DNA of 64,000 bases from Spirochaetia bacterium (GTDB lineage Bacteria; Spirochaetota; Spirochaetia; WTKD01; G963693115): contig CBDDCA010000005.1 in the NCBI GenBank assembly GCA_965226055.1, forward strand, positions 416,001-480,000. The letters are read 5' to 3'. The position numbers and the translations under genes are program-made. The notes beneath the pieces are model-generated. The model did no database searches. It was not told where the DNA came from and saw nothing but the letters and a program-made list of their open reading frames with translations. Below, one piece after another: positions 11,901 through 37,685 of the stretch. Numbering within the stretch: position 1 is the stretch's first letter; the number at the start of each line of letters is the position of its first letter.

Positions 11901-14900
11901 TTCGTATGCCTGCAGAGGCTTTTGTGAAATCGGTAGAATTGACTGCTTGTACTACTATTTCATAGGTAGTACTTCCAATAAGATTATTTATAGTTGTGCT
12001 GGTTGTTCCTTTTGCCACTGCTAGTGGGGTCCTGTCTGCTGTTTTAATCTCTGCTATTGTTCGGGCATCACTTCCTTTTGCTACTCGGTATACTTTGTAA
12101 GATACATCTGCCTTTGTGAGTTGTGTTCCGTCTGCTTTCTTGTGACTGCTTGTAAGCGTTGGGGCTTGCCATGATACTGCTATACTGTCATCGCCTGGGC
12201 TTCCTCTTACACTGCTTGCATCTGCTGGTGCTGTTGCATGATTCTGTGCAAGGGTAGTTACTTCTATTCGTTTGCCTGTAGAGACTTTTGTAGTATCGGT
12301 AAAATTGACTGCTTGTACTACTATTTCATAGGTGGTATTAGGGGTAAGACTGGTTATAGTTGTGCTTGTTGTTCCCCTTGCTACTGCTAGCGGGTTCTTA
12401 TCTGCTGTTTTAATCTCTGCTATTGTTCGGGCATCGCTTCCTTTTGCTACACGATACACTTTGTAAGATACATCTGCCGTTGTGAGTCTTTGTCCGTCTG
12501 CTTTCTTATGGCTAGTAGTAAGCGTTGGAGCTTGCCATGTTATTCTTGCACTGGTATCGGTTGGGCTTCCTGTAACACTACTTGCCTCTGCTGGTGCGGT
12601 GGCAAGGTTATCGGTAGTTACTTCTATTCTTACTCCTGTAGAGGCTTTTGTGGTATCGGTAGAATTGATCGCTTGTACTACTATTTCATAGGTGGTACTA
12701 GGGGTAAGATTAGTTATAGTTGCACTTGTTGTTCCTTTTACTACTTCAAGCGGGGTCTTGTCTGCTGTTATAATCTGTGCTATTGATCGAGTGTTTGCTC
12801 CATTCTTTGCTACTCGATATACTTTGTAAGATACATCTGCCTTTGTGAGTTTCGTTCCATCTGCTTTCTTGTGACTGCTTGTAAGGGCTGGGGCTGTCCA
12901 TGATACCGCTACACTGTCATCGGTTGGATTTCCTGCAACACTGCTTGCATCTGCTGGCGCGGTGGCAGGGTTCGTGGTAGTCACTTCTATTCTCACTCCT
13001 GTAGAGACTTTTGTCGTATCGGTGGAGTTGATTGCTTGTACTACTATTTCATAGGTAGTACTTCCTGTAAGATTAGTTATAGTTGTGCTTTTTGTTCCCT
13101 TTGCTACTGCTAGCGGGGTCCTATCTGCTGTTTTAATCTCTGCTATTGTTCGAGCATTCCTTCCTTTTGCTACACGATATACTTTGTACGATACATCTGC
13201 CGTTGTGAGTCTTTGTCCATTTGCTTTCTTGTGGCTAGTAGTAAGCGTTGGATCTGTCCACGATAAAGTTGTACTTGAGGCTGTCGTGCTTCCTGCGGTA
13301 ACACTGCGGGCGTCTGCTGGTGCAGTGGCAGGGTTCGTGGTAGCAACTTCTATTCGTATGCCTGTAGAGGCTTTTGTAGAGTCGGTGGAATTGACTGCTT
13401 GTACTACTATTTCATAGGTGGTACTTCCTGTAAGATTAGTTATAGTTGTGCTTGTTGTTCCCTTTGCTACTTCCATCGGGGTCTTGTCTGCTTCTTTAAT
13501 CTCTGCTATTGTTCTGCTCTTTGCTCCCTTTACTACTCGGTATACTTTGTAATATACATCTGCCTTTGTGAGTTGTGTTCCGTCTGCTTTCTTATGACTA
13601 CTTGTAAAGGCTGGTGCTTGCCATGATACCCCTACACTGTCATCGGCTGGGCTTCCTACAACACTGCTTGCATCTGCTGGTGCTGTTGCGTGATTATTTG
13701 CAAGGGTAGTTACTTCTATTCGTTTGCCTGTAGAGACTTTTGTGGTATCGGTGGAATTGACTGCTTGTACCACTATTTCATAGGTGGTAGCAGGGGTAAG
13801 ACTGGTTATATTTGTACTTGTTGTTCCCTTTGCTACTGCTAGCGGGTTATTATCTGCTGTTTTAATCTCTGCTACTGTTCGGACACCGTTTCCCTTTACT
13901 ACTCGGTATACTTTGTAAGATACATCTGCCTCTGTGAGTCTTTGTCCGTTTGCTTTTTTATGACTGCCTGTAAGTGCTGGTGCTTGCCATGTTATTCTTG
14001 CACTGGTATCGGCTGGGCTTCCTGCAACACTGCTTGCATCTGCTGGTGCAGTGGCGGGGTTATTGGTAGCTACTTCTATTCGTTTGCCTGTAGAGGCTTT
14101 TGTAGAGTCGGTGGAATTGACTGCTTGTACTACTATTTCATAGGTGGTACTTCCTGTAAGATTAGTTATAGTTGTGCTTGTTGTTCCCTTTGCTACTTCC
14201 ATCGGGGTCTTATCTGCTTCTTTAATCTCTGCTATTGTTCTGCTCTTTGCTCCCTTTACTACTCGGTATACTTTGTAATATATATCTGCCTTTGTGAGTT
14301 GTGTTCCGTCTGCTTTCTTGTGACTGCTTGTAAGGGCTGGGGCTTGCCATGATACCCCTATACTGTCATCAGCTGGGCTTCCTCTCACACTGCTTGCATC
14401 TGCTGGCGCGGTGGCTTGATTATTTACAAGGGTAGTTACTTCTATTCGTATGCCTGTAGAGGCTTTTGTGGTATCGGTGGAATTAACTGTTTGTACTACT
14501 ACTTCATAGGTGGTATTAGGCTTAAGATTAGTTATAGTTGTACTTGTTGTCGTTCCTTTTGCTACTTCAAGCGGGGACTTGTCTGCAATTATAATATTCG
14601 CTACTGTTCGGGCGTCTACTCCCTTTGCTACATGATATACCTTATACGATACATCTGCCGTTGTGAGTTGCGTTCCATCTGCTTTCTTGTGACTGGTATT
14701 AAGTGTTGGAGCTTGCCATGTTATTCTTGCACTGGTATCAGTTGGGCTTCCTGTAACAACGCGGGCGTCTGCGGGGACAGTTGAGGGGTTTAGGACAGTC
14801 ACTTCTACTCTTATTCCTGTAGAGATTTTCGTTGTATCCACTGCATTGACTGCCTGTACTACTATTTCATAGGTGGTATCAAGTTTACGATTATTTATAT

Positions 14901-15255
14901 TTATCGTTGTTATTCCTTTTTTTACCTTTGCAGGCGATTTATCTAATGCTATAATACTCGCTACTGTTCGGCTTTTTGCCCCCTTCTCTACTATAAAAAC
15001 ATTATACGATATATCTGCTTTTGTGAGTTGTGTTCCGTCTTTCTTTTTATGGCTAGCGGTAAGTGTGGGAGCTGTCCATGATAATATAATACTTCTGTTG
15101 ATAGTTTTATATGTAATATCTTTTACTTCTGCTAATCCAGTCGCAGAGGATAGTACATCATCCCCACTACCAGAGCTAGTCGAAGTGTTGGCCTCACAGC
15201 TACTTATCAAAACAATAAAAACAATAAAAATAATAAAATATACATTCTTTTTCAT
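8992..15255 (-). CDS. Giant lipoprotein made of 17 tandem fibronectin type III-like domains
   Basis: MKKNVYFIIFIVFIVLISS-C lipobox (ATG 15255 after AAGGAG); 17 repeats of about 120 aa with the W.AP..Y.VY..ITNL...TYEIVVQAVN pattern. Confidence 0.9.
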   Translation of the reverse strand: MKKNVYFIIFIVFIVLISSCEANTSTSSGSGDDVLSSATGLAEVKDITYKTINRSIILSWTAPTLTASHKKKDGTQLTKADISYNVFIVEKGAKSRTVASIIALDKSPAKVKKGITTININNRKLDTTYEIVVQAVNAVDTTKISTGIRVEVTVLNPSTVPADARVVTGSPTDTSARITWQAPTLNTSHKKADGTQLTTADVSYKVYHVAKGVDARTVANIIIADKSPLEVAKGTTTSTTITNLKPNTTYEVVVQTVNSTDTTKASTGIRIEVTTLVNNQATAPADASSVRGSPADDSIGVSWQAPALTSSHKKADGTQLTKADIYYKVYRVVKGAKSRTIAEIKEADKTPMEVAKGTTSTTITNLTGSTTYEIVVQAVNSTDSTKASTGKRIEVATNNPATAPADASSVAGSPADTSARITWQAPALTGSHKKANGQRLTEADVSYKVYRVVKGNGVRTVAEIKTADNNPLAVAKGTTSTNITSLTPATTYEIVVQAVNSTDTTKVSTGKRIEVTTLANNHATAPADASSVVGSPADDSVGVSWQAPAFTSSHKKADGTQLTKADVYYKVYRVVKGAKSRTIAEIKEADKTPMEVAKGTTSTTITNLTGSTTYEIVVQAVNSTDSTKASTGIRIEVATTNPATAPADARSVTAGSTTASSTTLSWTDPTLTTSHKKANGQRLTTADVSYKVYRVAKGRNARTIAEIKTADRTPLAVAKGTKSTTITNLTGSTTYEIVVQAINSTDTTKVSTGVRIEVTTTNPATAPADASSVAGNPTDDSVAVSWTAPALTSSHKKADGTKLTKADVSYKVYRVAKNGANTRSIAQIITADKTPLEVVKGTTSATITNLTPSTTYEIVVQAINSTDTTKASTGVRIEVTTDNLATAPAEASSVTGSPTDTSARITWQAPTLTTSHKKADGQRLTTADVSYKVYRVAKGSDARTIAEIKTADKNPLAVARGTTSTTITSLTPNTTYEIVVQAVNFTDTTKVSTGKRIEVTTLAQNHATAPADASSVRGSPGDDSIAVSWQAPTLTSSHKKADGTQLTKADVSYKVYRVAKGSDARTIAEIKTADRTPLAVAKGTTSTTINNLIGSTTYEIVVQAVNSTDFTKASAGIRIEVATTNPATAPADASNVRGRPTDTSARITWTAPTLTGSHKKANGQRLTTADVSYKVYRVAKGKNARTVAEIKTADKTPIAVAKGTTSTSITNLTLSTTYEIVVQAVNTTDITKSSTGVRIEVTTTNSATAPPEASSITGGLNDDGSVTVSWQAPTLTSSHKKANGQRLTTADVSYKVYRVERGIRFRSVAAIKAADPNPLAVAKGTTSINVPDIKSNATYEVVVQAINSTDTTKVSTGVKAFVVVTNHATAPPDISSVVIGKTDNSITLNWSILPRDSHQKRNGQRLTASDISYKVYRVVKGAKSRTIAEIKAADLNPLAGAKGTTSINITNLNENTTYEIVVQAINSTDTTKVSTGEKVEVTTTNHATAPPDARSVTGSPTDDSITVSWTAPALTSSHKKTDGQALTAADVLYKVYRVAKGKNARTIAEIKAADTTPLAVAKGTTSTNITNLTGSTTYEIVVQAVNSTAPAKVSTGVRIEETTTNPANAPADARNVTAESLIDTSATISWRDPVLTNIHKKPDGKTLTTADVSYKVYHVAKGKNARTIAEIKAADTNPIAVAKGTTSTNITNLTPATTYEIVVQAVNSTAPTKVSTGVKVEVTTTNNATAPPEARSVTGSPTDDSIGVSWTVPALTSIHKKTNGQRLTAADVSYKVYHVAKGENARTIAEIKAADRTPLAVAKGTTNTNITNLTPYTTYEIVVQAINSTAPAKVSTGIRKEVTTLSLANAPADARLIVTQPRKTNIGISWKSPTLTNNHKKADGTKLTTADVSYKVYRVAKGKNARSIAQIKTADTSPIAVGKGTISTSITNLTPGTTYEIVVQAVNATDPTKVSTGIRKEATTTSAGTPPDDPSWRSIKGSSTSTSIRVSWKAPTFTFLHKKADGTQLTAADVYYKVYRVERGKWAKSIVQVKAEDKNPLVVKKGTSVNITNLKSDTIYAIVIQVVNATDPTKASIGIYDELTTTR
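8995..15130 (-). repeat. 17 intragenic tandem repeats of about 360 bp
   Basis: Recurrent DNA block gactgcttgtactactatttcataggtggta every ~360 bp; 17 copies of the VVQA(V/I)N-type motif counted. Confidence 0.92.
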
Positions 15256-15308
15256 ACTTATCTCCTTTTTCAAGCTTAACGCTTAAATTTTTAATTCAGA
15301 TTACTATA

Positions 15309-15337
15309 ACTATAAAGAAAAAAAAGATAAAGTTCAA
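15309..15337 (-). promoter_or_regulatory. Putative sigma70 promoter of the FnIII lipoprotein gene
   Basis: TTGAAC-N17-TATAGT on the minus strand, with a T8 run in the spacer. Confidence 0.5.
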
Positions 15338-27068: not shown

Positions 27069-30000
27069 TTAGAAACAAACATCTTTATTACTACTACTAT
27101 CCAATTTCGTTGGATATTGTGCTGTTTTTCCTGCCATAGCTGATCCTGTAAACATAGCATCAAAAGTATCAGAAGCCTTATAGGTACATATCTTCCATTT
27201 CGATAAATTTTGATCAAATGCTGTGGCTTCCTTAAACATATCCTTATATGATATATTAGCTTGTATCGTCCAATCCGATATATCTTGATTAAATGCTTTT
27301 GTTAAACGAAACATTCTGTCCATGTTTGAAACATTATGCACTTTCCATTTTGATATATCTTGATTAAATTTGTCAGCAGCAAGAAACATACTACTCATAT
27401 CTTGAACATTACTTACATCCCAGTCCGATATATCTTGATTAAAATCTGCATTCGCATAAAACATTTGACTCATACTTCTCACATTACTTACATTCCAACC
27501 CGATATATCTTGATCGAACTTTACATTTGCTTTAAATAGACCGTCCATATCAGTTACATTACTCGTATCCCACTGTGATACATCTCTATTAAATACCCAT
27601 GCATCAACCAACATATTGCTCATAGTAGTTACATTACTTGTATTCCAATTTGATATATTTCCATTAAATTTCGTTGGCTTAAGATATTGATAAGTATAAC
27701 TACCTTGATTATACAATAAATACTCCATATCAGTAATAGCACTGGTATCTATCATGTTAAGATTAGGAGCATTTCCCTGTGCCTTTACCTCCGCGTCTAT
27801 AATATCTCTCAACGCATTCTTTGTCGTTGGTCTATAATAATTAGCTGCTTTTCCTTGTACTGCTTGTAGCCCTGTTTGTATTGTAATGCTACGTCTTTGC
27901 TGTCCTGCATGAGATCCTGTTCCTGTACATACTAAAGTGTATTTATACTCTCTAATAAAAGGATCATGCTCATTTGATTTGTTAGGCTTGCCAGTGATAC
28001 CATCTCTTACAGAAAATTGCAAGCCTGTCTCTTTCGCTAGTGCATCAATAGTACAGCTAAACGTTGCATTGCCTGGATCTTTTGTTATCGTTATTGGCGT
28101 AATAGCAGTACCTACTGTATATGTACTATTACTATTTTGCAACTCTATAGTAAAGGTTGCGGTGGTAACACTTTCTGCAGAAGTAGGGATAGATCTATTG
28201 TTTACAATGCTATTTACTGCCTCTACGGTAATAAAGTACTTCTGTCCTTTGTTGAGATTGCCTAGTACATATATTGCTTTCGATGTTACATCAGTTTTTA
28301 CTCCTCCTACTTTTGCATCTTGATTGCTTCCTTTTGCTTGCTCTGCCTGTGCTTGTGTTTTTACCTGTGCTGCTGTCAAGGTACTTGTCGATGCATAGTA
28401 ATATAATGTATAGCTTAGCTCATCCTCTGTCAATCCTGTACCATCTGTCTTTGTTCCCTTAAAGCTCGGTGCAGTAACATCCACCTCTATTGTATTCCCA
28501 TTTGCTTCTAGTGCTACAGTAGGGGTATTAGGCGCTGCTCCTTGTGCTGTCTTAAACTCTGCTCTCTTACCATCTGACATTTTTGTGGTATCGGTACTGT
28601 TTACTGCTTGTACTACTACTTCGTAATTTACTCCTGCTTTAAGGCTTGTCAATCCTGCTGTCTTTACATTTGCTCCTATTGTCATAGGACTACTATCTGC
28701 TGCTTTAATCTGTGCTACTGTTCTTGCTGTTGCTCCTTTTTCCGCATGATACACTTTATATGACACTTGACTGGCTTGCAATGCTGTCCCTGCCTTGTTC
28801 TTATAATTATTCCCTAATGTAGGCGCATCCCATTGCACCGTTGCCGTACCATTTGCTCCCCCTGAAATTGAAGTAAAAGTAATAGCATTTACCTCAGTAG
28901 GAACAAGGGTATCTACAAGAATACTTTCCACATCTGACACTACCTTTGCATCAAGATCTGTTTTTACTGCTATTTGAAATACAAAATGATACCGCTTTCC
29001 TTTAATAGAAGCACCGCCCACTGTTGAAAGTGCATTCAGTGTATATTTTCCTCCTTTCACTGTAGATCCACTTAGTGCAGGGAGTACTATTTCTGATCCC
29101 TTATCTATCACTTCTTGGGCAGTAGGCACTGTATCCTGTTGAAGCCCAAATACTATATATACTAATTCTTTATTATCGTTTATATTATCCCCACCCCTTG
29201 TTTGTGTGTACACTCTGTCCAAACCTGAACCATGTGCAAATTCAGACAACTGCGTCAACACTAGCTTTATTGCTCCTATTGGGCTTGATTGTGACACTGC
29301 TAATTTATTATCAAGCAACACTTTAGGAGGAGCTATTGCTTCTGATGATATTTTTGTTGAGGTAATAGCTTTTACACTACTATATACTGTTTTTGCTGTA
29401 TCTGATTTTATTACTACCTCTACCACAAAATGATACTTTGTTTCTGATTGTACAGTAAAAGTAAAAGTATTAGCAAATAAAGATACTCCTTGAACTAATT
29501 TAGACAAAGATATCTCAGTTCCTCCCGTATGTACTTCTGCTGCTGTTGGTATACTGCCTGTATCTTTTAGCAGATATGCGTTATACTCAAGATCTGCATT
29601 TGCAGTAACATTTGATCCATCAAATTTCTTTGCTCCTGTAAATGTTGTAAGCAAAGTAACATTAACGACAATACCCCCCCTATTTACACTAGGATCCGAT
29701 CTTACTGTTAGAATATCTGTCACTAACGATTGTTGAGGAGCTACTGCTTGAGACACTGTTATCCTTTGTACCGTACTGTATACTCTTTTTTCTGGCACTC
29801 TTGCTATTGCTACCTCTGCCACAAAATGATACTTCTTGCCTCCATCTAGGTCTATTTGTGCTGCTGAATCGCTTGTTAGCCCTAACTTATCCAACGCTTC
29901 TACTGTGTACTTGCCTCCACTTACTGTGCCTATGGCTACTTTTCTTCCATTGCTTACTATCTCTTGCACATTTGCTGGGTTCGTATCTTTCTGTAAGCCA

Positions 30001-33000
30001 TACACGGTATATACAAGATTACTGTTATCTGTTATTGTTTGTCCTGTACTGTCTTTTGCATTCGTAAACTGTGTCAGTTGTGTGAGTTCTAGCTTTAATT
30101 TTTCTACTGCGCTTGATTGTCCCAACGATAGTATATTGTTCACTAAGGATTGTTTTGGCGGTACTGCTGGTGATACTGTAATGCTCTCTATAGTACTCAA
30201 TACTTTTTTTGTCTTGTCTGTTGCTACTGCTACCTCTGCTACAAAATGATACTGCTTGCCTGCTACAAGCGATACTTGTGCTGCTGAATCGCTTGTTAAT
30301 CCTAGCTTATCCAATGCTTCTACTGTGTATACTCCTGCAGTGTTTGCTCCACTGGCACTGCCTATGGCTACTTTTCTTCCATTGCTTACTACTTCTTGTG
30401 CATTTGCTGGGTTCGTATCTTTCTGTAAGCCGTACACTGTGTAGCTTAGCCCTGTGTTATCGTTTATCGCTGCTCCTGTGTCTGCTTTGAGTCCTGTAAA
30501 ACTTGTCAATCTTCGTAATGTGAGCTTTACGGCTCCTGTACTACTTGATTGTTCCATAGAAAAATTACCAGACAATGCCCCTGCTGATGGTGCTACTGCT
30601 TCTGAGTCTGTCGTCACACTTTCTACATTGCCTACTACTTTCTTAGTCATATCTGTTGCTACTGCTACCTCTACTACAAAATGATATTGCTTATTGCCAA
30701 GTATCCCTACTTGTGCTGAAGAGTCTGTAGTAAGCCCTAACTTATCTAAGCTATTGACTGTATACTTGCCTGCACTTACTGTGCCTATGGCTACTTTCCT
30801 TCCTGCAAGTACTTCATTTTTCGTAGGTGTGGTATCTTTCTGTAAGCCGTACACTGTGTAGCTCAGTCCTGTGTTATCGTTTATCGCTGCTCCTGTGTCT
30901 GCTTTGAGTCCTGTAAAGCTCGTGAGTACTGTTACTTCTAGCTTTACTTCTCCTACTGTTGTCGATTTACTCACTGCTAATATATCGTTCACTGAGGACT
31001 GCTGAGGTGCTACTGCTTTTGACGCTGTCTTTACTGTCTCTACAGTACTGTACACTTTCTTTGTTGTATCTGTTTTTACTGCTACTTCTGCGACAAAATA
31101 GTAATCTCTGTTACCTTTTATCGTTTCTACTGAGGGACTTGCTCCGAGTGTTGTGAGTGCATTGATCGTGTACTTTCCGCCACTTACTGCTCCTAATGCT
31201 ACTTTCTTGTTATTGTTTACTATATCCTGTATACTTGGGGCTGTTCCTGTCTTTTGTAGTCCATATACTGTATAGATAAGTCCTGCATTGCTAGTAATAT
31301 CTACTCCTACATCATCTTTTGCATTCGTAAATTGCGTTAATACTGTGAGATCTACTTTTACTGCTCCTACTGTTGTTGATGTACCCACCACTAATATATC
31401 GTTCACTAAGGACTGCGCAGGTGCTACTGCTTTTGATGACAGTACTACCGTCTTTATTGTTCCTACTACTTTCTTTGTCACATCTGTCTTTATTGCTACT
31501 TCTACTACAAAATGATACTGCTTTCTCTCTACTATATCTATTTGTCCTCCTGCATCTGTGGTAAGCCCTAACTTACTCAAGCCAGAGACTGTATACTTGC
31601 CGTCTCTTGCACTTCCTATGGCTACTTTTCTTCCATTGCTTACTACTTCTTGTGCATTTGCTGGGTTCGTATCTTTCTGTAAGCCATATACGGTATATAC
31701 CAGTCCTGCATTACTGGTGATTGCTGTGCCTGTATCGTCTTTTGCTTGTGCACTTGCAAAGTTTGTCAATTCTGTGAGTTCCAAGTCTATCGTGCCTGTT
31801 GGTATTGGGTTTGTTTCCTCTACTGTCAAGAGCGGGTTTATTGCAATTTGTAGCGGTGCTTTTGCTTGCGAGCCTGTTGTCACACTTTCTACTGCTCCGT
31901 ATACTTTCTTGGTCGTATCTGTTTTTACTGCTACTTCTACCACAAAATGATATTGTGCTTTCCCTTTTATTGCTATTTGTACCTTTGGTGTTTCGCTTGT
32001 CAAGCCTAATTTATCTACTCCATCCTGGGTATACTTGCCTCCACTTGCACTTCCTATGGCTACTTTTCTTCCATTGCTTACTACTTCTTGTGCATTTGCT
32101 GGGTTCGTATCTTTTTGCAAGCCATATACGGTATATACCAGCCCGTCATTATTGGTTATCGGATTTCCTGACGCATCTATTGCATTGGTAAATGCTGTCA
32201 ACTCGGTCACTTCTATTTTTATTGTCCCTTCTCTTGTCAGTGACTTACTCACTGCTAAGATATCATTCACTAAGGACTGGGCTGGCGGTACTGCTTGTAC
32301 TCCTTCCATTGTCAGCTTCTTTATTGTTCCTGCTGTTCCGCTTGCCACTTTTGTGCTATTGAGTGTATTTATCGCTGCTACTCCTACCGTATAGGTCTTT
32401 TTGTCTTCTCCTGCAAAGGTGATGCTGTGCTTGGTCGCACTATTGCTTCCTTGTACCACACGGCTTCTTACTCCGCTTTCTGCTTGTATTTCGTCTAGGG
32501 TGCTATGGTCTCCTTCTGCTATGTACACTCTATACTCTACTTGTGATTGTGATAACTCCGTCCCTGCTGGTGTTTTATACGATGCTCCAAATGTTCCTAT
32601 ACTAAACTCATAGATCCCCTTAAATGATTGTGCTTCTTTTAAGGTTGCTCCACTGGGCATAGGGGGGGCTGTCGATACACTATCCCATACTTTGAGCTTT
32701 GTGCTTGCTATGTCTGTTGCGGGACTTACTTGCCCGCCTTTTATCTCTACAAGAAAAAATCCGTATTCTTTTGCTGTTCCTTCTGTGCTTGCTACTTCTA
32801 GGCCATCTGCTATCCCAAAGTATACTTCTTTTGTACTTCCTGTTATGCTCTTTTCTGCTACGACTGTTGCTCCTTCGTTCATCCTTACTCGATAATAGAT
32901 ACTACTTCCAGGGCCTGTCTTAAATGCTACCTTTGCTCTTATTGCCCCGCTCTTATCAAGCGTAATCCCTTCTACTCCATCCTTTGAGGGGGCTGCTAGT

Positions 33001-34745
33001 GCTGCTGGTACTGTCACCTCTGCTGTTTTTTCACTCTCGTTTCCTGCATAATCTTTACTCAATATCTTTACTTCGTAGGTCTTTCCTGATTCTAAACTTG
33101 CTATTTCTTTATAGAAACGGGTCGCTGGATACTTCACTGCTGTCGATGGCAACACTTCGGTATTGGGGGCTTCTTTCTCTGCTACACTTACTAGATATTC
33201 TTTTATGTCTTGATTTTTCGCAAGTATAGTATTTGGTGCTCCCCACTCTATACGCAACGCTTTCTTGCCTCCTGAAAGCACTACTTTACTGGTGATACTT
33301 CCTACGGCATCAGGTGCTTCTGTATCTGCATTTGTGAGTGTTGTCACTTCTTTTTCTGCTGCTGCTCCTTCGTTATCAGCACTATCAAGCGATACGACTT
33401 TCACCTTGTATTTTGTTGCTGCTTCCAAGCCTGTTATTTCGGCATTCCTTACACTACTGCTCCTTATCGTCTCTGTCTTTACTACTGTTATCCCTTGCAT
33501 TACTGTTATCTTTACTCCTGCATAATCTCCTACTTGCGGTGCTTGCCAGCTTACTATCACTCTAGTTTGCCCTGCTACTACTCCCACATTTGTTACTGTT
33601 TCTGTCTGCTTATCGGTGGTGGTTCCTTCTTTCTCTACTGCCGTGTAGTATCTCCCGTTCTTATAGGGTCGCACTATCGCTTTGTAGCTCTGTACTCCAT
33701 AGAGCTTGGTTACTGCTACGCCATTCTGCCCTACATACAGCATCCCTTTTTCTTCTGTCGCATTTGCTACTTGGGCAACACTGTTTTTTGTCACACGAGC
33801 ATCTGCTACTACTTGTCCCGTGCTTGTCTCTACTACTACCAACAGTTCTACTTCACCGCTTACATCGTAATTCCCCCATGTAATAAGCAGACTCTCATCT
33901 GCTGCTGCTCCTGTTTTATCTTTTGCTTCTACTTTTACATTTGATGCTTGTAACGCAGGCACTGCTTCTCCGAGCTTTGAGGGATCTATATCTGTCAATT
34001 CTTCTTTTATGCTTGCTTTGTTGCCATTGATATCTTCATAGACTATCTTTACATCGTAGCGTACATTACTGCTTGTCGCTACCGAAAACGCAAGCTCTCC
34101 GCTCTCTATATTGGTTATTTCTTTTTTCGCTACTACCTCTCCTGATGCATTTTCTATTTGCACCTCTGCTTTGCTTATATCGGTTTTGCCTTTCCCTAGC
34201 CTCTTTGTGTCCCATACTACTTTGAGCTGGTTGTCTCCTGCTTTCTCTACTCCTACATGAAAAAAGCCATCTTGCGGGGCAGTGGTATCCGCTGCGGTAA
34301 TAATTTCTTGCGATACCTTTGACGACTTCTGACTTCCTGATTGTGCTTCTACCTCTATCGTATAGGCGGTATGCTCTTTCAAGCCTTTTAGCTCATATTT
34401 TAGCCTTCCCAGAAAGAGTTCTTTATATTCCTGTGCGGGTACTGTTACGCTAAAAGACTGCCCTGTAGTGCCTACGGGACTTGCAGTGATGACTACACTG
34501 TCCGCTGCTACTGGTGCTTCCCAGCTGAGCTCTAGTGATCCATTATCTGCTACTGATGTTATCGATAAATCTGATACTGACCCAAGTGTTGTCGGTGTCG
34601 GTGGAGTAGGATCAGACCCTCCTCCTGATGAACTGCTACTACTATCTGTACATGCTATGAGTATAGCAGCTATCACTATATATACGAGAAAAGAGAGTTT
34701 ACCCCCCCCCCCCCCCATTTTTCGTGTTATATTATTTCTTATCAT
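27069..34745 (-). CDS. Giant modular surface lipoprotein: FnIII-like domains, 8 repeats of ~140 aa, putative Ig domain, C-terminal BspA/DUF285 domain
   Basis: Lipobox ILIA-C followed by SSSSSSGGG; WEAP/WQAP FnIII motifs; repeated YTVYGLQKD..YHFVVEVA; C-terminal FNQDISxWxVSNVxxMxxMF repeats; SD AAGGAG. Confidence 0.9.
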   Translation of the reverse strand: MIRNNITRKMGGGGGKLSFLVYIVIAAILIACTDSSSSSSGGGSDPTPPTPTTLGSVSDLSITSVADNGSLELSWEAPVAADSVVITASPVGTTGQSFSVTVPAQEYKELFLGRLKYELKGLKEHTAYTIEVEAQSGSQKSSKVSQEIITAADTTAPQDGFFHVGVEKAGDNQLKVVWDTKRLGKGKTDISKAEVQIENASGEVVAKKEITNIESGELAFSVATSSNVRYDVKIVYEDINGNKASIKEELTDIDPSKLGEAVPALQASNVKVEAKDKTGAAADESLLITWGNYDVSGEVELLVVVETSTGQVVADARVTKNSVAQVANATEEKGMLYVGQNGVAVTKLYGVQSYKAIVRPYKNGRYYTAVEKEGTTTDKQTETVTNVGVVAGQTRVIVSWQAPQVGDYAGVKITVMQGITVVKTETIRSSSVRNAEITGLEAATKYKVKVVSLDSADNEGAAAEKEVTTLTNADTEAPDAVGSITSKVVLSGGKKALRIEWGAPNTILAKNQDIKEYLVSVAEKEAPNTEVLPSTAVKYPATRFYKEIASLESGKTYEVKILSKDYAGNESEKTAEVTVPAALAAPSKDGVEGITLDKSGAIRAKVAFKTGPGSSIYYRVRMNEGATVVAEKSITGSTKEVYFGIADGLEVASTEGTAKEYGFFLVEIKGGQVSPATDIASTKLKVWDSVSTAPPMPSGATLKEAQSFKGIYEFSIGTFGASYKTPAGTELSQSQVEYRVYIAEGDHSTLDEIQAESGVRSRVVQGSNSATKHSITFAGEDKKTYTVGVAAINTLNSTKVASGTAGTIKKLTMEGVQAVPPAQSLVNDILAVSKSLTREGTIKIEVTELTAFTNAIDASGNPITNNDGLVYTVYGLQKDTNPANAQEVVSNGRKVAIGSASGGKYTQDGVDKLGLTSETPKVQIAIKGKAQYHFVVEVAVKTDTTKKVYGAVESVTTGSQAKAPLQIAINPLLTVEETNPIPTGTIDLELTELTNFASAQAKDDTGTAITSNAGLVYTVYGLQKDTNPANAQEVVSNGRKVAIGSARDGKYTVSGLSKLGLTTDAGGQIDIVERKQYHFVVEVAIKTDVTKKVVGTIKTVVLSSKAVAPAQSLVNDILVVGTSTTVGAVKVDLTVLTQFTNAKDDVGVDITSNAGLIYTVYGLQKTGTAPSIQDIVNNNKKVALGAVSGGKYTINALTTLGASPSVETIKGNRDYYFVAEVAVKTDTTKKVYSTVETVKTASKAVAPQQSSVNDILAVSKSTTVGEVKLEVTVLTSFTGLKADTGAAINDNTGLSYTVYGLQKDTTPTKNEVLAGRKVAIGTVSAGKYTVNSLDKLGLTTDSSAQVGILGNKQYHFVVEVAVATDMTKKVVGNVESVTTDSEAVAPSAGALSGNFSMEQSSSTGAVKLTLRRLTSFTGLKADTGAAINDNTGLSYTVYGLQKDTNPANAQEVVSNGRKVAIGSASGANTAGVYTVEALDKLGLTSDSAAQVSLVAGKQYHFVAEVAVATDKTKKVLSTIESITVSPAVPPKQSLVNNILSLGQSSAVEKLKLELTQLTQFTNAKDSTGQTITDNSNLVYTVYGLQKDTNPANVQEIVSNGRKVAIGTVSGGKYTVEALDKLGLTSDSAAQIDLDGGKKYHFVAEVAIARVPEKRVYSTVQRITVSQAVAPQQSLVTDILTVRSDPSVNRGGIVVNVTLLTTFTGAKKFDGSNVTANADLEYNAYLLKDTGSIPTAAEVHTGGTEISLSKLVQGVSLFANTFTFTVQSETKYHFVVEVVIKSDTAKTVYSSVKAITSTKISSEAIAPPKVLLDNKLAVSQSSPIGAIKLVLTQLSEFAHGSGLDRVYTQTRGGDNINDNKELVYIVFGLQQDTVPTAQEVIDKGSEIVLPALSGSTVKGGKYTLNALSTVGGASIKGKRYHFVFQIAVKTDLDAKVVSDVESILVDTLVPTEVNAITFTSISGGANGTATVQWDAPTLGNNYKNKAGTALQASQVSYKVYHAEKGATARTVAQIKAADSSPMTIGANVKTAGLTSLKAGVNYEVVVQAVNSTDTTKMSDGKRAEFKTAQGAAPNTPTVALEANGNTIEVDVTAPSFKGTKTDGTGLTEDELSYTLYYYASTSTLTAAQVKTQAQAEQAKGSNQDAKVGGVKTDVTSKAIYVLGNLNKGQKYFITVEAVNSIVNNRSIPTSAESVTTATFTIELQNSNSTYTVGTAITPITITKDPGNATFSCTIDALAKETGLQFSVRDGITGKPNKSNEHDPFIREYKYTLVCTGTGSHAGQQRRSITIQTGLQAVQGKAANYYRPTTKNALRDIIDAEVKAQGNAPNLNMIDTSAITDMEYLLYNQGSYTYQYLKPTKFNGNISNWNTSNVTTMSNMLVDAWVFNRDVSQWDTSNVTDMDGLFKANVKFDQDISGWNVSNVRSMSQMFYANADFNQDISDWDVSNVQDMSSMFLAADKFNQDISKWKVHNVSNMDRMFRLTKAFNQDISDWTIQANISYKDMFKEATAFDQNLSKWKICTYKASDTFDAMFTGSAMAGKTAQYPTKLDSSSNKDVCF
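28911..32297 (-). repeat. 8 intragenic repeats of about 140 aa
   Basis: Units begin A(V/K/I)(A/P)P and end YHFV.EVA; near-identical DNA block cctatggctacttttcttccattgcttact at ~29930, 30361, 31615 and 32054. Confidence 0.85.
34702..34716 (-). repeat. Poly-G15 tract inside the signal-peptide coding sequence
   Basis: 15 consecutive C on the plus strand, encoding M-GGGGG. Confidence 0.9.
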
Positions 34746-34788
34746 ACATCACTCCTTATGATATAATTTTATTTTTATCAACTTTTAC

Positions 34789-34817
34789 ATTATATATATT
34801 ATTTCCTATTTTGTCAA
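34789..34817 (-). promoter_or_regulatory. Consensus sigma70 promoter of the giant lipoprotein gene
   Basis: TTGACA (34817-34812), 17-nt spacer, TATAAT (34794-34789). Confidence 0.85.
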
Positions 34818-34824
34818 TATAGAT

Positions 34825-34841
34825 AAAAAAAAAAAAAAAAA
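34825..34841 (-). repeat. Poly-T17 tract just upstream of the -35 box
   Basis: 17 consecutive A on the plus strand, 7 bp upstream of TTGACA. Confidence 0.85.
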
Positions 34842-34967
34842 TACACTTTTTTTATCGCATATCCCTTATATCTGAAAGCACTAGCATATAAGTATAGTAC
34901 TAAAGAAATAAAAGTACTATACTAAAAAAAGAATAAAAAATATATACATATATAATAAGGAGTTATT

Positions 34968-37685
34968 ATGAAAGAAACATTGGCATATATATCTTTCTTT
35001 GGCAAAGGTATATCCGAAGGAGATTCATCAATGAAAGAAATACTAGGAGGAAAAGGAGCTAATCTTGCTGAAATAGCAGGCTTAAACATACCAGTTCCTC
35101 CTGGATTTACGATTACTACCGAAGCTTGTGCAAAATACAATGAAACAAAAAAGTTTCCTCCAGGACTAAAAGAGAGTACTAAAAAAGCAATCACTCGACT
35201 TGAAACTATACTTTCAAAAAAGCTAGGAGATTCTAAAAATCCATTATTAGTATCAGTTCGTTCTGGAGCGGCAGTATCAATGCCTGGCATGATGGATACT
35301 ATTCTTAACCTAGGGCTAAATGATACATCTGTTATAGGACTAGCACAGTCTTCTCAAAATGAACGTTTTGCATGGGATGCCTATAGAAGACTTATCAATA
35401 TGTTTGGTAATGTTGTATACAACATGAACCATCATGATTTTGAACAAGCTCTTACAAAAGTAAAAAATGAGTATGATGTAGAACTAGACACTGAGCTTAA
35501 TGCAGAAGCATTAAAAAAAGTAGTACTTGCATATAAAGCTCTTTTTAAGAAACATGCAAACAAAGATTTTCCTCAAAATGCACACACACAATTACAAGAA
35601 GCTATTTTAGCAGTATTTAGTTCATGGAACAACGAACGTGCTATAACATATAGAAAACTAAATAAAATTTCTGGATTATTAGGAACAGCAGTAAATGTGC
35701 AGTCTATGGTATTTGGAAATTTTGGGCTTGATTCTGGTACTGGTGTTGCTTTTACTCGTGATGCATCAACAGGAGAAAAAGTATTTTATGGTGAATATCT
35801 TATGAACGCTCAAGGAGAAGATGTAGTAGCAGGAATACGAACACCAAAAAAAATACATGCTCTAAAAAAACAACAACCAAAAATATATTCTCAATTAGTA
35901 GCAATAAAAGATAAGTTAGAAAAACATTATCGTGATATGCAAGACATAGAGTTTACCATAGAACAGGGAAAACTGTATATTTTACAAACAAGAAGCGGAA
36001 AACGCACTGGTGCAGCAGCAATAAAAATTGCTGTAGATATGGTAAAAGAAAAACTCATTACTAAAGAAGAAGCATTACTTCGTGTTGATGGAGAACTATT
36101 TCAACAGGTATTTCATCCCCGTATTGATGATAAAGCAAAAAAAACATCATCTGTACTAGCAAAAGGAATCAATGCATCTCCCGGAGCAGCAGTTGGCAAG
36201 ATAGTTCTCTCTTCAGAGGAAGCACAAGCCGCTGCCCAAAAAGGCATTAAAACGATATTAGTACGCGAACAAACATCCCCCGAAGACATTGGAGGAATGA
36301 GTGTAGTACAAGGTATCCTCACAAGTACTGGAGGAATGACAAGTCATGCTGCAGTCGTAGCAAGAGGAATGGGAACTCCCTGTATTGTTGGTTGTTCTGC
36401 ACTACAAATAAAAGATGGAAGTGTAATTATAGCTGATAAAGAATATCCAGTAGGAACAATACTTACCTTAGATGGTTCTACAGGAGAAATATATGATACT
36501 GCACTTCCACTTATTGAAGCAAGTATTAACAATGATATAAAAGCATTCCTCAGCTATGCCGATCAAATACGATCAGCTGCAAAACGCCCTAAAGATCATC
36601 CTTCAAGTTTTAATATTCGAGCAAACGCTGACACTCCAGAAGATGCCTTAAAAGCACGAAATTGGGGAGCACAGGGAGTCGGATTATGTAGAACAGAACA
36701 CATGTTTTTCAACGAAGATAGAATACGCATTTTTCGAGAAATGATACTAGCCGATGATCAAAAGAGTAGAAAAAAAGCATTAGATAAGCTCCTTCCTTTA
36801 CAAAAAAAAGACTTTGAAGGCATTCTCACTGCAATGAAAGGATTGCCAGTAACTATTAGGCTTCTTGATCCACCTTTACATGAATTTTTACCACAAGAAG
36901 CAAAACAGCAATCTGAGCTAGCATCTATGCTTAATATCTCTATTACTGAAATACAACACAGAATACAAAGACTTCATGAAAGCAACCCTATGATGGGATT
37001 GCGTGGATGTAGACTAGGAATTATATATCCTGAAGTATATGAAATGCAAATTAGAGCAATCATCAATGCTGAAATATCATGTCTTAAAAAAGGCATTAAA
37101 GTAAAACCTGAAATAATGATACCGTTAGTAGGCTCATATACAGAATTAGCACGCCTTAGAGAACTTGCACAATCTATAATAAAAGAAGAAAAACAAAAAA
37201 ATAAACTCAGTATTAGTTCAAAAATAGGCACTATGATAGAAATCCCTCGAGCAGCCATCACTGCAGATCAAATTGCTCAATATGCAGATTTCTTCTCTTT
37301 TGGCACAAACGACTTAACACAACTTACCTATGGTTTTTCAAGAGAAGACACCTCTTCTTTCTTTCCTAATTACCTTGATGAAAAAATATTAGAAAATGAT
37401 CCATTCCAAATACTAGATACTACAGGAGTGGGCTTTCTGGTAAAACATGCTACTATTGCAGGAAGAACGACAAAGCCAAACCTTTCTCTCGGCATTTGTG
37501 GTGAACACGGAGGAGAACCCCACTCCATCAACTTTGCGTACCAATGTGGATTAAACTATGTATCCTGTTCTCCATTAAGAGTACCTGTTGCACGCCTTGC
37601 TGCAGCTCAAGCAGTAATAAAATCAAGCAATCAAAAGGCTACTTCTATCAAAAAAACTACTAAAACAACAAAAAAGAGTACGTAG
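34968..37685 (+). CDS. ppdK: Pyruvate, phosphate dikinase
   Basis: LGGKGANLAE, VSVRSGAAVSMPGMMDT, GGMTSHAAVVARG, GLCRTEHMF, SFGTNDLTQ, GICGEHGG. Confidence 0.97.
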   Translation: MKETLAYISFFGKGISEGDSSMKEILGGKGANLAEIAGLNIPVPPGFTITTEACAKYNETKKFPPGLKESTKKAITRLETILSKKLGDSKNPLLVSVRSGAAVSMPGMMDTILNLGLNDTSVIGLAQSSQNERFAWDAYRRLINMFGNVVYNMNHHDFEQALTKVKNEYDVELDTELNAEALKKVVLAYKALFKKHANKDFPQNAHTQLQEAILAVFSSWNNERAITYRKLNKISGLLGTAVNVQSMVFGNFGLDSGTGVAFTRDASTGEKVFYGEYLMNAQGEDVVAGIRTPKKIHALKKQQPKIYSQLVAIKDKLEKHYRDMQDIEFTIEQGKLYILQTRSGKRTGAAAIKIAVDMVKEKLITKEEALLRVDGELFQQVFHPRIDDKAKKTSSVLAKGINASPGAAVGKIVLSSEEAQAAAQKGIKTILVREQTSPEDIGGMSVVQGILTSTGGMTSHAAVVARGMGTPCIVGCSALQIKDGSVIIADKEYPVGTILTLDGSTGEIYDTALPLIEASINNDIKAFLSYADQIRSAAKRPKDHPSSFNIRANADTPEDALKARNWGAQGVGLCRTEHMFFNEDRIRIFREMILADDQKSRKKALDKLLPLQKKDFEGILTAMKGLPVTIRLLDPPLHEFLPQEAKQQSELASMLNISITEIQHRIQRLHESNPMMGLRGCRLGIIYPEVYEMQIRAIINAEISCLKKGIKVKPEIMIPLVGSYTELARLRELAQSIIKEEKQKNKLSISSKIGTMIEIPRAAITADQIAQYADFFSFGTNDLTQLTYGFSREDTSSFFPNYLDEKILENDPFQILDTTGVGFLVKHATIAGRTTKPNLSLGICGEHGGEPHSINFAYQCGLNYVSCSPLRVPVARLAAAQAVIKSSNQKATSIKKTTKTTKKST

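Follow-up and report, generated by a model that had tools for sequence, protein, structure and literature searches.

The window analysed here, a 64,000-nucleotide stretch of the 2.25-Mb genome of an uncultured Spirochaetia bacterium, carries a gene for a 2558-amino-acid surface lipoprotein (P0001) with two long homopolymers at its 5′ end – a run of 15 G residues inside the reading frame and a run of 17 T residues close to a consensus promoter. An earlier note on this DNA read the pair as a two-level phase-variation switch, and the locus raises the question of whether each tract could regulate the gene and whether the arrangement is confined to it.

Phase-variable repertoires of this kind are usually a sign of shifting pressure from hosts or phages. 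In Campylobacter jejuni, Neisseria and Haemophilus, contingency genes for surface structures, glycosyltransferases and restriction-modification systems (phasevarions) have G/C tracts of about 8–11 in their 5′ coding regions, and Helicobacter and Campylobacter, classic examples of homopolymer switching, are not known to have both MutS and MutL intact. The Mycoplasma genes for Vaa and P78 have poly-A in the 5′ coding region and those for Vlp have it in the promoter spacer; in this second type, to which Neisseria porA and opc also belong, a repeat between the −35 and −10 boxes sets the spacer length. In Helicobacter pylori sabA, as an excerpt of the source describes it, a T tract adjoining the −35 box modulates transcription in a graded way, and a CT tract in the coding region sets the gene ON or OFF (PMC4081817). 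In Treponema pallidum, which is likewise a spirochete, poly-G tracts, again according to an excerpt, differ in length within strains and regulate putative surface proteins, the promoters concerned being those of tpr, tp0126 and tprL (PMC7864442).

Here, we examine the 5′ end of the P0001 gene and compare it with its relatives in this genome and in that of a sister genus. We consider it probable, though well short of certain, that a giant exported lipoprotein gene is gated by two hypermutable homopolymers and that it forms part of a genome-wide contingency system.

Results

The P0001 gene and its product

All of the features described in the earlier note were found, and the gene lies on the minus strand:

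27069..34745 (−), coding sequence of the 2558-amino-acid surface lipoprotein P0001 (ORF list and translation)
34650..34661 (−), lipobox L-I-A-C, residues 29–32 (translation)
34968..37685 (+), divergent neighbour, a pyruvate phosphate dikinase-like gene (ORF; relatives 50–59% identical)

P0001 consists, in order, of a signal peptide with lipobox, a Ser/Gly/Pro linker, fn3 domains (PF00041; Pfam 1.8e-23, 83 bits against a gathering cut-off of 25), eight tandem repeats of ~142 amino acids each, and a C-terminal DUF285 domain (PF03382; 1.5e-55, 186.5 bits against a cut-off of 25). The repeat motif YxVYGLQ occurs eight times at a spacing of 138–146 amino acids. A bacterial lipoprotein signal has a positively charged n-region, a hydrophobic core and then a lipobox ending in Cys, with the lipobox rule [LVI][ASTVI][GAS]C; by this rule the P0001 N-terminus is predicted to fit, as MIRNNITRKMGGGGGK-LSFLVYIVIAAILIA-C, with Cys32 as the predicted lipidated residue, at which the mature protein would begin.

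A G tract within the signal peptide

The elements at the 5′ end, from upstream to downstream on the minus strand, are as follows:

34847..34853 (−), A7 box, 5 nt upstream of T17; A7–A8 in all family A copies
34825..34841 (−), T17 tract (A17 on the plus strand; read from the sequence), one of 29 A/T runs of at least 13 in the genome
34789..34817 (−), predicted sigma-70-type consensus promoter TTGACA-N17-TATAAT, scored 12/12 in the scan
34752..34757 (−), Shine-Dalgarno sequence AAGGAG (read from the sequence), 6 nt before the ATG at 34745
34743..34745 (−), likeliest start codon ATG, Shine-Dalgarno-linked and in conserved context
34716..34718 (−), in-frame ATG (Met10) abutting G15, without Shine-Dalgarno sequence and not conserved
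34702..34716 (−), G15 tract (C15 on the plus strand; read from the sequence), one of 31 G/C runs of at least 11 in the genome

The order is thus A7, gtgta, T17, atctata, TTGACA, the 17-nt spacer, TATAAT, AAGGAG, ATG, and finally the second ATG with G15. The earlier note had taken M-GGGGG, at this second ATG, as the N-terminus, a placement that is most likely wrong. Translation most likely starts nine codons further upstream at the Shine-Dalgarno-linked ATG at 34745, eight codons separating the two. The AAGGAGTGATGTATGATAA context of the upstream ATG is kept in five of five copies of the P0001 family (family A) in two genomes; the tract-adjacent ATG is replaced by ATT in the two copies of the sister genome, and two paralogs from the same genome as P0001 have an additional T directly after it. 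With the start at 34745, the Gly run would therefore lie within the n-region of the signal peptide.

The first G of the tract is the G of the tract-adjacent ATG, and the tract, which spans codons 10–15, is followed by T AAA CTC; together with this T it encodes Gly11–Gly15. As the earlier note had stated, the frame is presently ON, the ORF at 27069–34745 being open across the tract. After G15, the three frames stay open for 0, 2543 and 7 residues. The predicted effects of a one-base change were borne out by frame translation: one extra G (G16) creates a TAA at once, and the loss of one (G14) gives GTA plus seven codons and then TAG. Only 1.3e-5 G/C runs of length 15 are expected per genome. Three marks of a translational contingency gene – a slip-prone repeat near the 5′ coding end, an early stop on a +1 or −1 change, and length polymorphism with conserved flanks and intact OFF alleles – were all found for G15 and its family. 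That the G tract acts as a binary, slipped-strand ON/OFF switch, as the earlier note proposed, is well supported by the bimodal run lengths in the genome, the varied G lengths of the five family copies and the intact OFF paralogs, all presented below.

ViennaRNA modelling gave −53 versus −31 kcal/mol for G15 and −36 versus −29 kcal/mol for G13. On this model, at 15 or more G residues the mRNA or the non-template DNA could fold into a three-tetrad G-quadruplex, which, if formed, would add a structural layer to frame and promoter control.

A T tract adjoining the promoter

Four promoter-like sites were found in 34600–35000, and the one at 34789–34817 (−35 TTGACA at 34817–34812, −10 TATAAT at 34794–34789) is the sole perfect match, which upholds the claim of a perfect promoter upstream of the gene. 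Such perfect TTGACA-N17-TATAAT sites number nine genome-wide against 1.8 expected, two of the nine being in the P0001 gene family. Transcription from the P0001 promoter would be expected to start about 7 nt downstream of 34789. The T17 tract lies 7 nt from TTGACA, exactly where it had been reported; about 0.01 A/T runs of this length are expected per genome. In the sabA-type arrangement, as given in an excerpt of PMC4081817, a T/A tract lies no more than 20 nt upstream of the −35 box. T17 lies within that distance, and tract length varies at this position among relatives (T14, T15, T17, T19 and T20), so that a role for T17 as a rheostat of promoter strength is plausible. In a sabA-type rheostat, RNA polymerase contacts A boxes or UP-like elements further upstream; by analogy, the conserved A7 box may be a UP-like element, with its phasing set by the T tract.

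A repeat-in-spacer type of switch is excluded at P0001, where the spacer is a fixed, non-repetitive 17 nt. Another family in the same genome may be of the promoter-spacer repeat type.

Distribution of long homopolymers in the genome

The genome has 31 G/C runs of 11–20, with a mode of 14–15, against about 0.02 expected; shorter runs are few (four of length 8, one of 9, none of 10). Likewise, there are 29 A/T runs of 13–30 against about 1.4 expected, and four, zero and zero runs of 10, 11 and 12 against 27, 9 and 3 expected. Both length distributions are bimodal, and nearly every long run is located at the 5′ end or in the promoter of a giant fn3/DUF285 lipoprotein gene, an hsdS gene or a glycosyltransferase gene.

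A scan of the genome for other lipoprotein genes with G tracts, which the earlier note had suggested, placed 20 of the 31 G/C tracts in the 5′ coding ends of giant lipoprotein genes: three in family A, 14 in family B (one at a contig end) and three in family C. Four others are in hsdS genes (PF01420), four precede further giant lipoprotein genes, two precede GT11/HtrL-like genes and one is unassigned. Among the 29 A/T tracts, 19 lie upstream of the promoters of family B/E lipoprotein genes (1528–1716 amino acids), one more has the same flank and is at a contig end, and three belong to family A. At least 44 giant lipoprotein genes account for 10.7% of the genome, and one and the same protein family can carry either module, G or T, or the two together. 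The gene at 3..1292 (−) in the window, which the earlier note had called a paralog without a G tract, does lack the tract but is a member of another lipoprotein family, whose proteins have about 1530 amino acids.

Read from the Shine-Dalgarno-linked ATG, five of 19 G-tract lipoprotein genes are in frame (two of three in family A, two of 13 in family B and one of three in family C), an assignment of ON and OFF that hinges on exact homopolymer lengths in the assemblies. In all 14 OFF genes the frame after the tract is open, for 1526–2536 amino acids.

These distributions bear on whether the T tract has any regulatory part. The G tract alone might switch the gene, with the T tract a static UP-like or bent-DNA element, or a slippage-prone relic of a duplicated 5′ cassette, its length in neutral drift and of no useful effect on expression. 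The broad range of lengths (13–30), with no favoured value, would suit this reading. So would the gene at 3..1292 and the family B members in this genome, which keep a TATAAT promoter while their T tracts are interrupted or decayed; because the family B promoters are kept despite lost or interrupted tracts, the tract is dispensable for the existence of the promoter. Neutrality, however, should let interruptions build up, whereas the 29 runs of 13–30 persist as pure tracts and runs of 10–12 are depleted. Moreover, in both genomes nearly all A/T runs occupy a single site near the promoters of surface lipoprotein genes, and a tract so placed has a rheostat function in sabA and further H. pylori genes, according to an excerpt of the sabA source. 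A static or neutrally drifting T tract thus seems to us unlikely, if still deserving some weight.

Comparison with the sister genome

The two tracts and their near-identical flanks are found in five family A copies in the two genomes: T17/G15 (ON), T14/G13 (ON), T20/G15 (OFF), T19/G15 (OFF) and T15/G18 (OFF). Because the family copies have a common origin, tracts at matching positions cannot be counted as independent events. With the dikinase-like gene as a synteny anchor, the T19/G15 copy, which lies beside a dikinase gene, was identified as the sister-genome ortholog of P0001; in L082 the same dikinase-like N-terminus is found 256 nt upstream of that copy's G tract. The sister-genus genome, covered by pattern searches and 20 short targeted stretches, has 43 G runs of at least 11 and 30 T runs of at least 13, and six more of its genes, beyond family A, carry both tracts. 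The two-level design claimed for P0001 is therefore present there, both tracts included, but is not particular to it, being found in three genes of this genome and at least eight of the sister genome.

Tract length differs in eight of nine likely ortholog pairs, defined as best BLAST hits over 526–999 nt, with G tracts of 18/15, 14/11, 14/12, 14/15 and 15/9 and T tracts of 19/17, 15/20, 26/30 and 17/26. In one likely ortholog pair, one species has the G module and the other lacks it. A search of the protein database with the P0001 family gave 23 hits, all from these two genomes. Exact-pattern scans of metagenome contigs, with the family A flanks separated by a variable gap or with G10 plus the family B flank, gave no match, and literature searches on phase-variable spirochete lipoproteins and DUF285 returned T. 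pallidum papers and unrelated work rather than this system.

Transcriptional slippage on long homopolymers is established, and non-heritable slippage of RNA polymerase or ribosomes on G15 could give mixed-frame products, and low leaky expression in place of a clonal ON/OFF state, from every copy. Such rescue would fit the 14 of 19 genes that are out of frame yet intact, as well as the intact mutS and mutL products of this genome. We nevertheless think it very unlikely as the explanation, because tract lengths in the DNA differ between paralogs and orthologs, so that heritable change occurs, and because the ON share of five in 19 is near the one-third expected from freely drifting frames. Slippage in the transcript or on the ribosome and switching in the DNA can coexist.

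Tract lengths in contigs from other sequencing runs

Seven sequencing-run entries contain the stretch, all of them Logan contigs and none RNA, of which four (X2, X4, X5 and X6) were compared, with positions 34812–34856, including the T tract, masked as repeat. X4 crosses the G tract with the same C15, and X5 and X6 cross it at equal total length with a synonymous C>T at 34704 (G12-A-GG); as all three agree with the reference in length, no frame-shifted allele of P0001 was seen in these contigs. X5 and X6 leave the reference upstream of 34910, for which reason they may represent a paralogous or rearranged copy. The 169-nt X2 contig has two unplaced gap letters. Loose contig ends at 34700/34702 in X2, X4 and X6 were considered as evidence of tract heterogeneity and set aside, as plain assembly difficulty also fits them.

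The same breaks, and the error-prone nature of long homopolymers on every platform, could mean that the tracts or their lengths are sequencing or assembly artefacts; a related reading takes the out-of-frame genes for decaying pseudogenes. The same gene positions bear tracts in two independent assemblies, however, and the short-read-derived contig X4, though possibly from the source sample, repeats the C15. Errors would not fall selectively on signal peptides, hsdS genes and promoters, and decaying genes would not hold frames of 1500–2500 amino acids in every one of 14 cases. An artefactual or pseudogene origin thus appears extremely improbable.

Discussion

Control of the giant lipoprotein gene by two hypermutable homopolymers would work as follows. 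G15 and T17 would change length by slipped-strand mispairing at replication. A change in G15 that is not a multiple of three would end translation within 0–8 codons and, since the stop precedes the hydrophobic core and lipobox, no exported protein would be made; the tract would thereby be a heritable, reversible ON/OFF switch, and changes of three would merely add or remove a glycine in a tolerant n-region. Changes in T17 would shift both the spacing and the helical phasing of the core promoter relative to the upstream A/T boxes and, in consequence, grade promoter output, as shown for H. pylori sabA. Genome-wide, about 60 long homopolymers would control 44 genes for giant lipoproteins, four hsdS genes and genes for glycosyltransferases. 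The sequence anatomy, the frame consequences, the non-random placement of tracts across the genome and the length differences among paralogs and orthologs are observed directly; we infer that switching occurs, at what rate, where transcription starts and any effect of T length on it. A further extension, in which the at least 44 lipoprotein genes form a modular surface-coat generator, each under exchangeable T13–T30 and/or G11–G20 modules, with a possible quadruplex layer on top, is doubtful.

The closest counterpart is sabA, in which two simple repeats, a promoter T tract and a 5′ coding repeat, act on one adhesin-type gene, as proposed for P0001; an excerpt of PMC4081817 discusses T13–T19 in sabA, similar to the lengths here, and A boxes upstream. 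The coding repeat of sabA is a CT dinucleotide, whereas that of P0001 is G15 inside a lipoprotein signal peptide; unlike sabA, P0001 has a perfect consensus promoter and a spirochete host with intact MutS and MutL. In T. pallidum, as far as the excerpted account goes, the G tracts (7–11) are in promoters and act on transcription, while at P0001 the G tract is part of the translated sequence and it is a run of T residues that adjoins the promoter.

The gene classes with tracts in this genome are those of the poly-G contingency genes of C. jejuni, Neisseria and Haemophilus, although the G tracts are longer here (mode 14–15) and gate giant fn3/DUF285 lipoproteins of 1500–2580 amino acids. As in the variable lipoproteins of Mycoplasma, from which the DUF285 lipoprotein domain also present in P0001 takes its name, the homopolymer is in the N-terminal coding region or the promoter of lipoprotein genes; the phylum, the base (G), the far larger proteins and a promoter tract upstream of the −35 box, not in the spacer, set P0001 apart. 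The mismatch repair genes sit less easily with the proposed switching. MutS and MutL are both present and intact, so slippage rates would be lower, which counts against a switch; the G11–G20 and T13–T30 tracts are nonetheless held well beyond classic contingency-gene lengths.

If the proposal is right, sabA-like two-tier repeat control arose in a distant, uncultured spirochete lineage, where a very large family of giant lipoproteins is under its control and hsdS and glycosyltransferase genes are phase-variable as well, and the repertoire is a clue to how an organism lives that has never been grown. Gene callers have given OFF copies false starts in the protein database (MGGGGG..., MTTLVLVGC...), so that genes of this kind will end up mis-annotated or called pseudogenes. 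The G and T tracts of P0001 are 108 nt apart, so that single accurate reads can score both and the independence of the two putative switches is directly testable in natural samples.

Organization of the 5′ region

The gene under study (27069-34745, minus strand) is an open reading frame of 2558 aa encoding a giant surface lipoprotein, and on the plus strand the region of interest has C15 (34702-34716) at one end and A17 (34825-34841) at the other. The features, in order of transcription, are:

34853-34847, minus strand: A7 box, followed by gtgta
34841-34825, minus strand: T17, followed by atctata
34817-34812, minus strand: TTGACA, followed by a 17-nt spacer
34794-34789, minus strand: TATAAT, followed by about 31 nt
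34757-34752, minus strand: AAGGAG, followed by 6 nt
34745, minus strand: ATG, followed by ATA AGA AAT AAT ATA ACA CGA AAA
34718-34716, minus strand: ATG touching the tract, followed by fourteen more G, then T AAA CTC TCT

Seven nt separate T17 from the -35 box, a conserved A7-A8 box lies 5 nt beyond the tract, and the TTGACA-N17-TATAAT site scores 12/12 in a promoter scan. The protein begins MIRNNITRKMGGGGGKLSFLVYIVIAAILIAC, which we take to be a signal peptide of lipoprotein type with an LIAC lipobox. Because the three frames after the G tract contain 0, 2543 and 7 residues before a stop, one additional G gives TAA at once, and loss of one G gives eight codons and then TAG, ahead of the hydrophobic core. 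The earlier note had described the G15 and T17 tracts, the 12/12 promoter, and the G16 and G14 stops, correctly in every detail.

Its choice of the tract-adjacent ATG as the start is most likely wrong, since that codon has no Shine-Dalgarno sequence and varies among copies: it is ATG here and ATT in both copies of the sister genome, G001, and in two paralogs the ATG has one more T after it. AAGGAG precedes the ATG at 34745 by 6 nt, in a context (AAGGAGTGATGTATGATAA) kept in 5/5 copies, from two genomes, of family A (our grouping of giant lipoprotein genes, to which this one belongs). With initiation at 34745, the glycines (residues 11-15) fall within the n-region, and the consequence for switching is the same. 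No plausible start was found downstream of the G tract in this gene; the lone in-frame candidate, a GTG within the hydrophobic core, has no Shine-Dalgarno sequence, and a signal peptide starting from it would be too short.

Long homopolymers in the source genome

The source genome (2.249 Mb, 6 contigs, 34.9% G+C) has a bimodal distribution of homopolymer lengths in both base classes. G/C runs match expectation up to length 9 (four of length 8, one of length 9), none is of length 10, and 31 are of 11-20 (mode 14-15) against about 0.02 expected. A/T runs of 10, 11 and 12 are depleted (4, 0 and 0 vs 27, 9 and 3 expected), and those of 13-30 number 29 against about 1.4 expected; the scarcity at 10-12 suggests selection against accidental mutable tracts. 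Runs of 5-8 A/T are also in excess. Genes of at least 1400 aa linked to long tracts number 44 and make up 10.7% of the genome.

Long homopolymer tracts of the source genome, by associated gene
G/C, family A: 3/31; about 2540 aa, fn3, eight ~142-aa repeats and DUF285
G/C, family B: 14/31; about 1510-1590 aa, fn3 and DUF285; one at a contig end
G/C, family C: 3/31; 2454-2580 aa, 22 DUF285 stretches
G/C, hsdS (PF01420): 4/31; poly-C near the start, a Pro run
G/C, upstream of other giant lipoprotein genes (Big_5/Kelch, DUF285/He_PIG): 4/31
G/C, upstream of GT11 fucosyltransferase-like and HtrL/YibB-like genes: 2/31
G/C, remaining: 1/31
A/T, family B/E (family B proteins with a different 5′ cassette): 19/29; ~36 nt upstream of a TGnTATAAT promoter, lipoprotein genes of 1528-1716 aa
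A/T, B/E-type flank at a contig end: 1/29
A/T, family A: 3/29
A/T, an fn3 family: 2/29; one gene of 2199 aa, the other with only a 77-aa open frame
A/T, upstream of a 610-aa DUF285 lipoprotein gene: 1/29
A/T, elsewhere: 3/29

All 20 of the 20 G/C tracts of families A, B and C lie within the first 10-25 codons. The contingency-locus sets of Helicobacter, Campylobacter, Neisseria and Haemophilus classically comprise genes for surface proteins, glycosyltransferases and restriction-modification specificity subunits. The four hsdS genes carry C14-C20 near the start (G000:C1:13372, C3:96327, C4:27722 and C6:662400; three in frame, one out) and, judged by sequence, look like phase-variable type I specificity subunits. 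The GT11 fucosyltransferase-like and HtrL/YibB-like genes are preceded by G13 and G14 tracts (G000:C6:301332 and C6:302460) whose flanks are nearly identical. Three non-surface loci have long T runs (G000:C6:554563, C4:167442 and C6:742767), among them T15 upstream of an EF-G-like GTPase gene, T16 upstream of a dynamin-family GTPase gene, and a T30 site kept as T26 in G001.

Length variation and ON/OFF states

Frames were counted from the Shine-Dalgarno-linked ATG, and single calls are provisional as assembly homopolymer lengths can be off by one. In-frame genes make up 5/19 of the G-tract lipoprotein set (family A 2/3, family B 2/13, family C 1/3), one of the two in family B being cut short at 527 aa. 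If frames drifted freely, about one third would be expected in frame, which is near this proportion. That the tracts are artefacts, or the out-of-frame genes decaying pseudogenes, is very improbable; all 14 of the 14 out-of-frame genes retain an uninterrupted frame of 1526-2536 aa directly after the tract, which decay does not explain. The interpretation of G15 as an ON/OFF switch is strongly supported by sequence comparison.

Tract lengths and frame in the five family A copies, with near-identical flanks
Gene under study: T17/G15, ON
Second copy: T14/G13, ON
Third copy: T20/G15, OFF
Copy adjoining the same dikinase gene in G001, the ortholog: T19/G15, OFF
Fifth copy: T15/G18, OFF

G001, of the same genus (2.36 Mb, one contig), has 30 T runs of at least 13 and 43 G runs of at least 11; the G runs average about 15.3 in length (from 226 G11 windows). 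Likely orthologs were taken as G001 loci with their best BLAST match in the source genome over 526-999 nt (n=9), and tract length is unequal in 8/9 pairs. G tracts differ as 18/15, 14/11, 14/12, 14/15 and 15/9 and are equal in one 14/14 pair and in the gene under study (15/15); T tracts are 19/17, 15/20, 26/30 and 17/26. Six further G001 genes, of family B, have both tracts (T13-17 and G11-17; two ON, four OFF). The two-level layout that the earlier note described for this gene therefore recurs, with three genes in the source genome and at least eight in G001 having it. More widely, the gene is just one among the many loci with a long tract. In other genomes of the family, long tracts number two (G004), about six (G005) and none (G002 and G003).

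The stretch occurs in seven sequencing runs, each as assembled contigs and none RNA, and four were compared across the G tract, with the T-tract region masked. The X4 contig, which may derive from the source sample, spans the tract free of indels; its sole gap is 3 letters at 34781. Those of X5 and X6 span it without a change in total length and carry C>T at 34704, a synonymous GGG-to-GGA change splitting the run into G12-A-GG; they depart from the reference beyond 34910 and hence may represent another copy. X2 contigs stop at the tract, and one of 169 nt has 2 unplaced gap letters. No frame-shifted allele of the gene was found among contigs spanning the tract (X4, X5, X6), nor was heterogeneity within a sample seen in these contigs.

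Proposed mechanism

Slipped-strand mispairing would be expected often on a 15-base homopolymer. A frame shift would end the preprotein ahead of both the hydrophobic core and the lipobox, leaving nothing to be exported, and 3-base shifts would change only the number of glycines. Dominance of non-heritable slippage, by polymerase or ribosome, seems improbable. MutS (901 aa) and MutL (654 aa) are intact in the source genome, unlike in Helicobacter and Campylobacter, and also in four relatives; we infer that intact repair may lie behind both the unusual tract length and the avoidance of 10-12-base A/T runs elsewhere.

By analogy with H. pylori sabA, a role for T17 as a promoter rheostat is plausible. 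Family B genes of the source genome have lost the pure T tract and kept the promoter, so the tract is at most a modulator; that it is a neutral, slippage-prone relic is rather unlikely. A further idea is that a G-quadruplex could form in the 5′ region: the ViennaRNA quadruplex model gives natural G15 regions -53 kcal/mol with a quadruplex vs -31 without, and the natural G13 copy -36 vs -29. In the predicted fold lacking a quadruplex, a pyrimidine stretch 5 nt downstream, CUCUCUUUUCUC, pairs with the G run (34640-34720, minus strand, mRNA sense), and a small hairpin further upstream holds the Shine-Dalgarno sequence in its loop.

Relation to known systems

Mycoplasma variable lipoproteins, poly-G contingency genes and phasevarions are related systems, and the closest is sabA, with two-tier repeat control. 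According to PMC4081817, transcription of sabA is graded by a T tract next to the -35 box, and a coding CT tract of the gene gives ON/OFF switching; this layout is common to five other H. pylori genes. The present locus is laid out alike. The promoter poly-G tracts of T. pallidum, varying from 7 to 11 within strains (PMC7864442), are also related. No report of the system in this lineage was found among the literature listings searched. The interest of the locus lies in its scale, lineage and testability. Among 5.8 billion clustered proteins, all 23 matches to the protein family come from the source genome and G001. The neighbouring dikinase-like protein has at most 59% identity to anything in the species collection, the top matches being Spirochaetaceae and Treponema MAGs.

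Other tract-associated genes and annotation

As the earlier note stated of the paralog at 1..1292, the gene at 3..1292 (minus strand) has no G tract. It encodes the first part of P0021 (MKKYQLNSKWNITIATLAWVLAIATFFVLGC), a family B/E lipoprotein of 1528 aa; in the upstream region, to 1450, the family promoter is kept and the T tract has decayed (tattttctttttata). At 8992..15273 (minus strand) lies a lipoprotein gene of 2093 aa belonging to a third fn3 family, with its promoter at about 15290-15330. Its relatives (G000:C3:41621 and C3:51427) have T13 or T15 between TTGCGG and TATAAT, so that the tract sets the -35/-10 spacer (17 or 19), which may make it a spacer-type switch. In the window, this gene has just T9. 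In G001, G and T tracts are almost exclusively forward to about 1.15 Mb and reverse past about 1.2 Mb, and the genes bearing them seem co-oriented with the two replication arms. A G41 run (G001:C1:1976500-1977300) is far longer than every other tract. In out-of-frame copies (P0003-P0005, P0010 and P0015-P0017), gene callers chose artificial start codons, lying within the tract or downstream of it (MGGGGG..., MTTLVLVGC...), and the database entries for these proteins therefore lack the true signal peptide.
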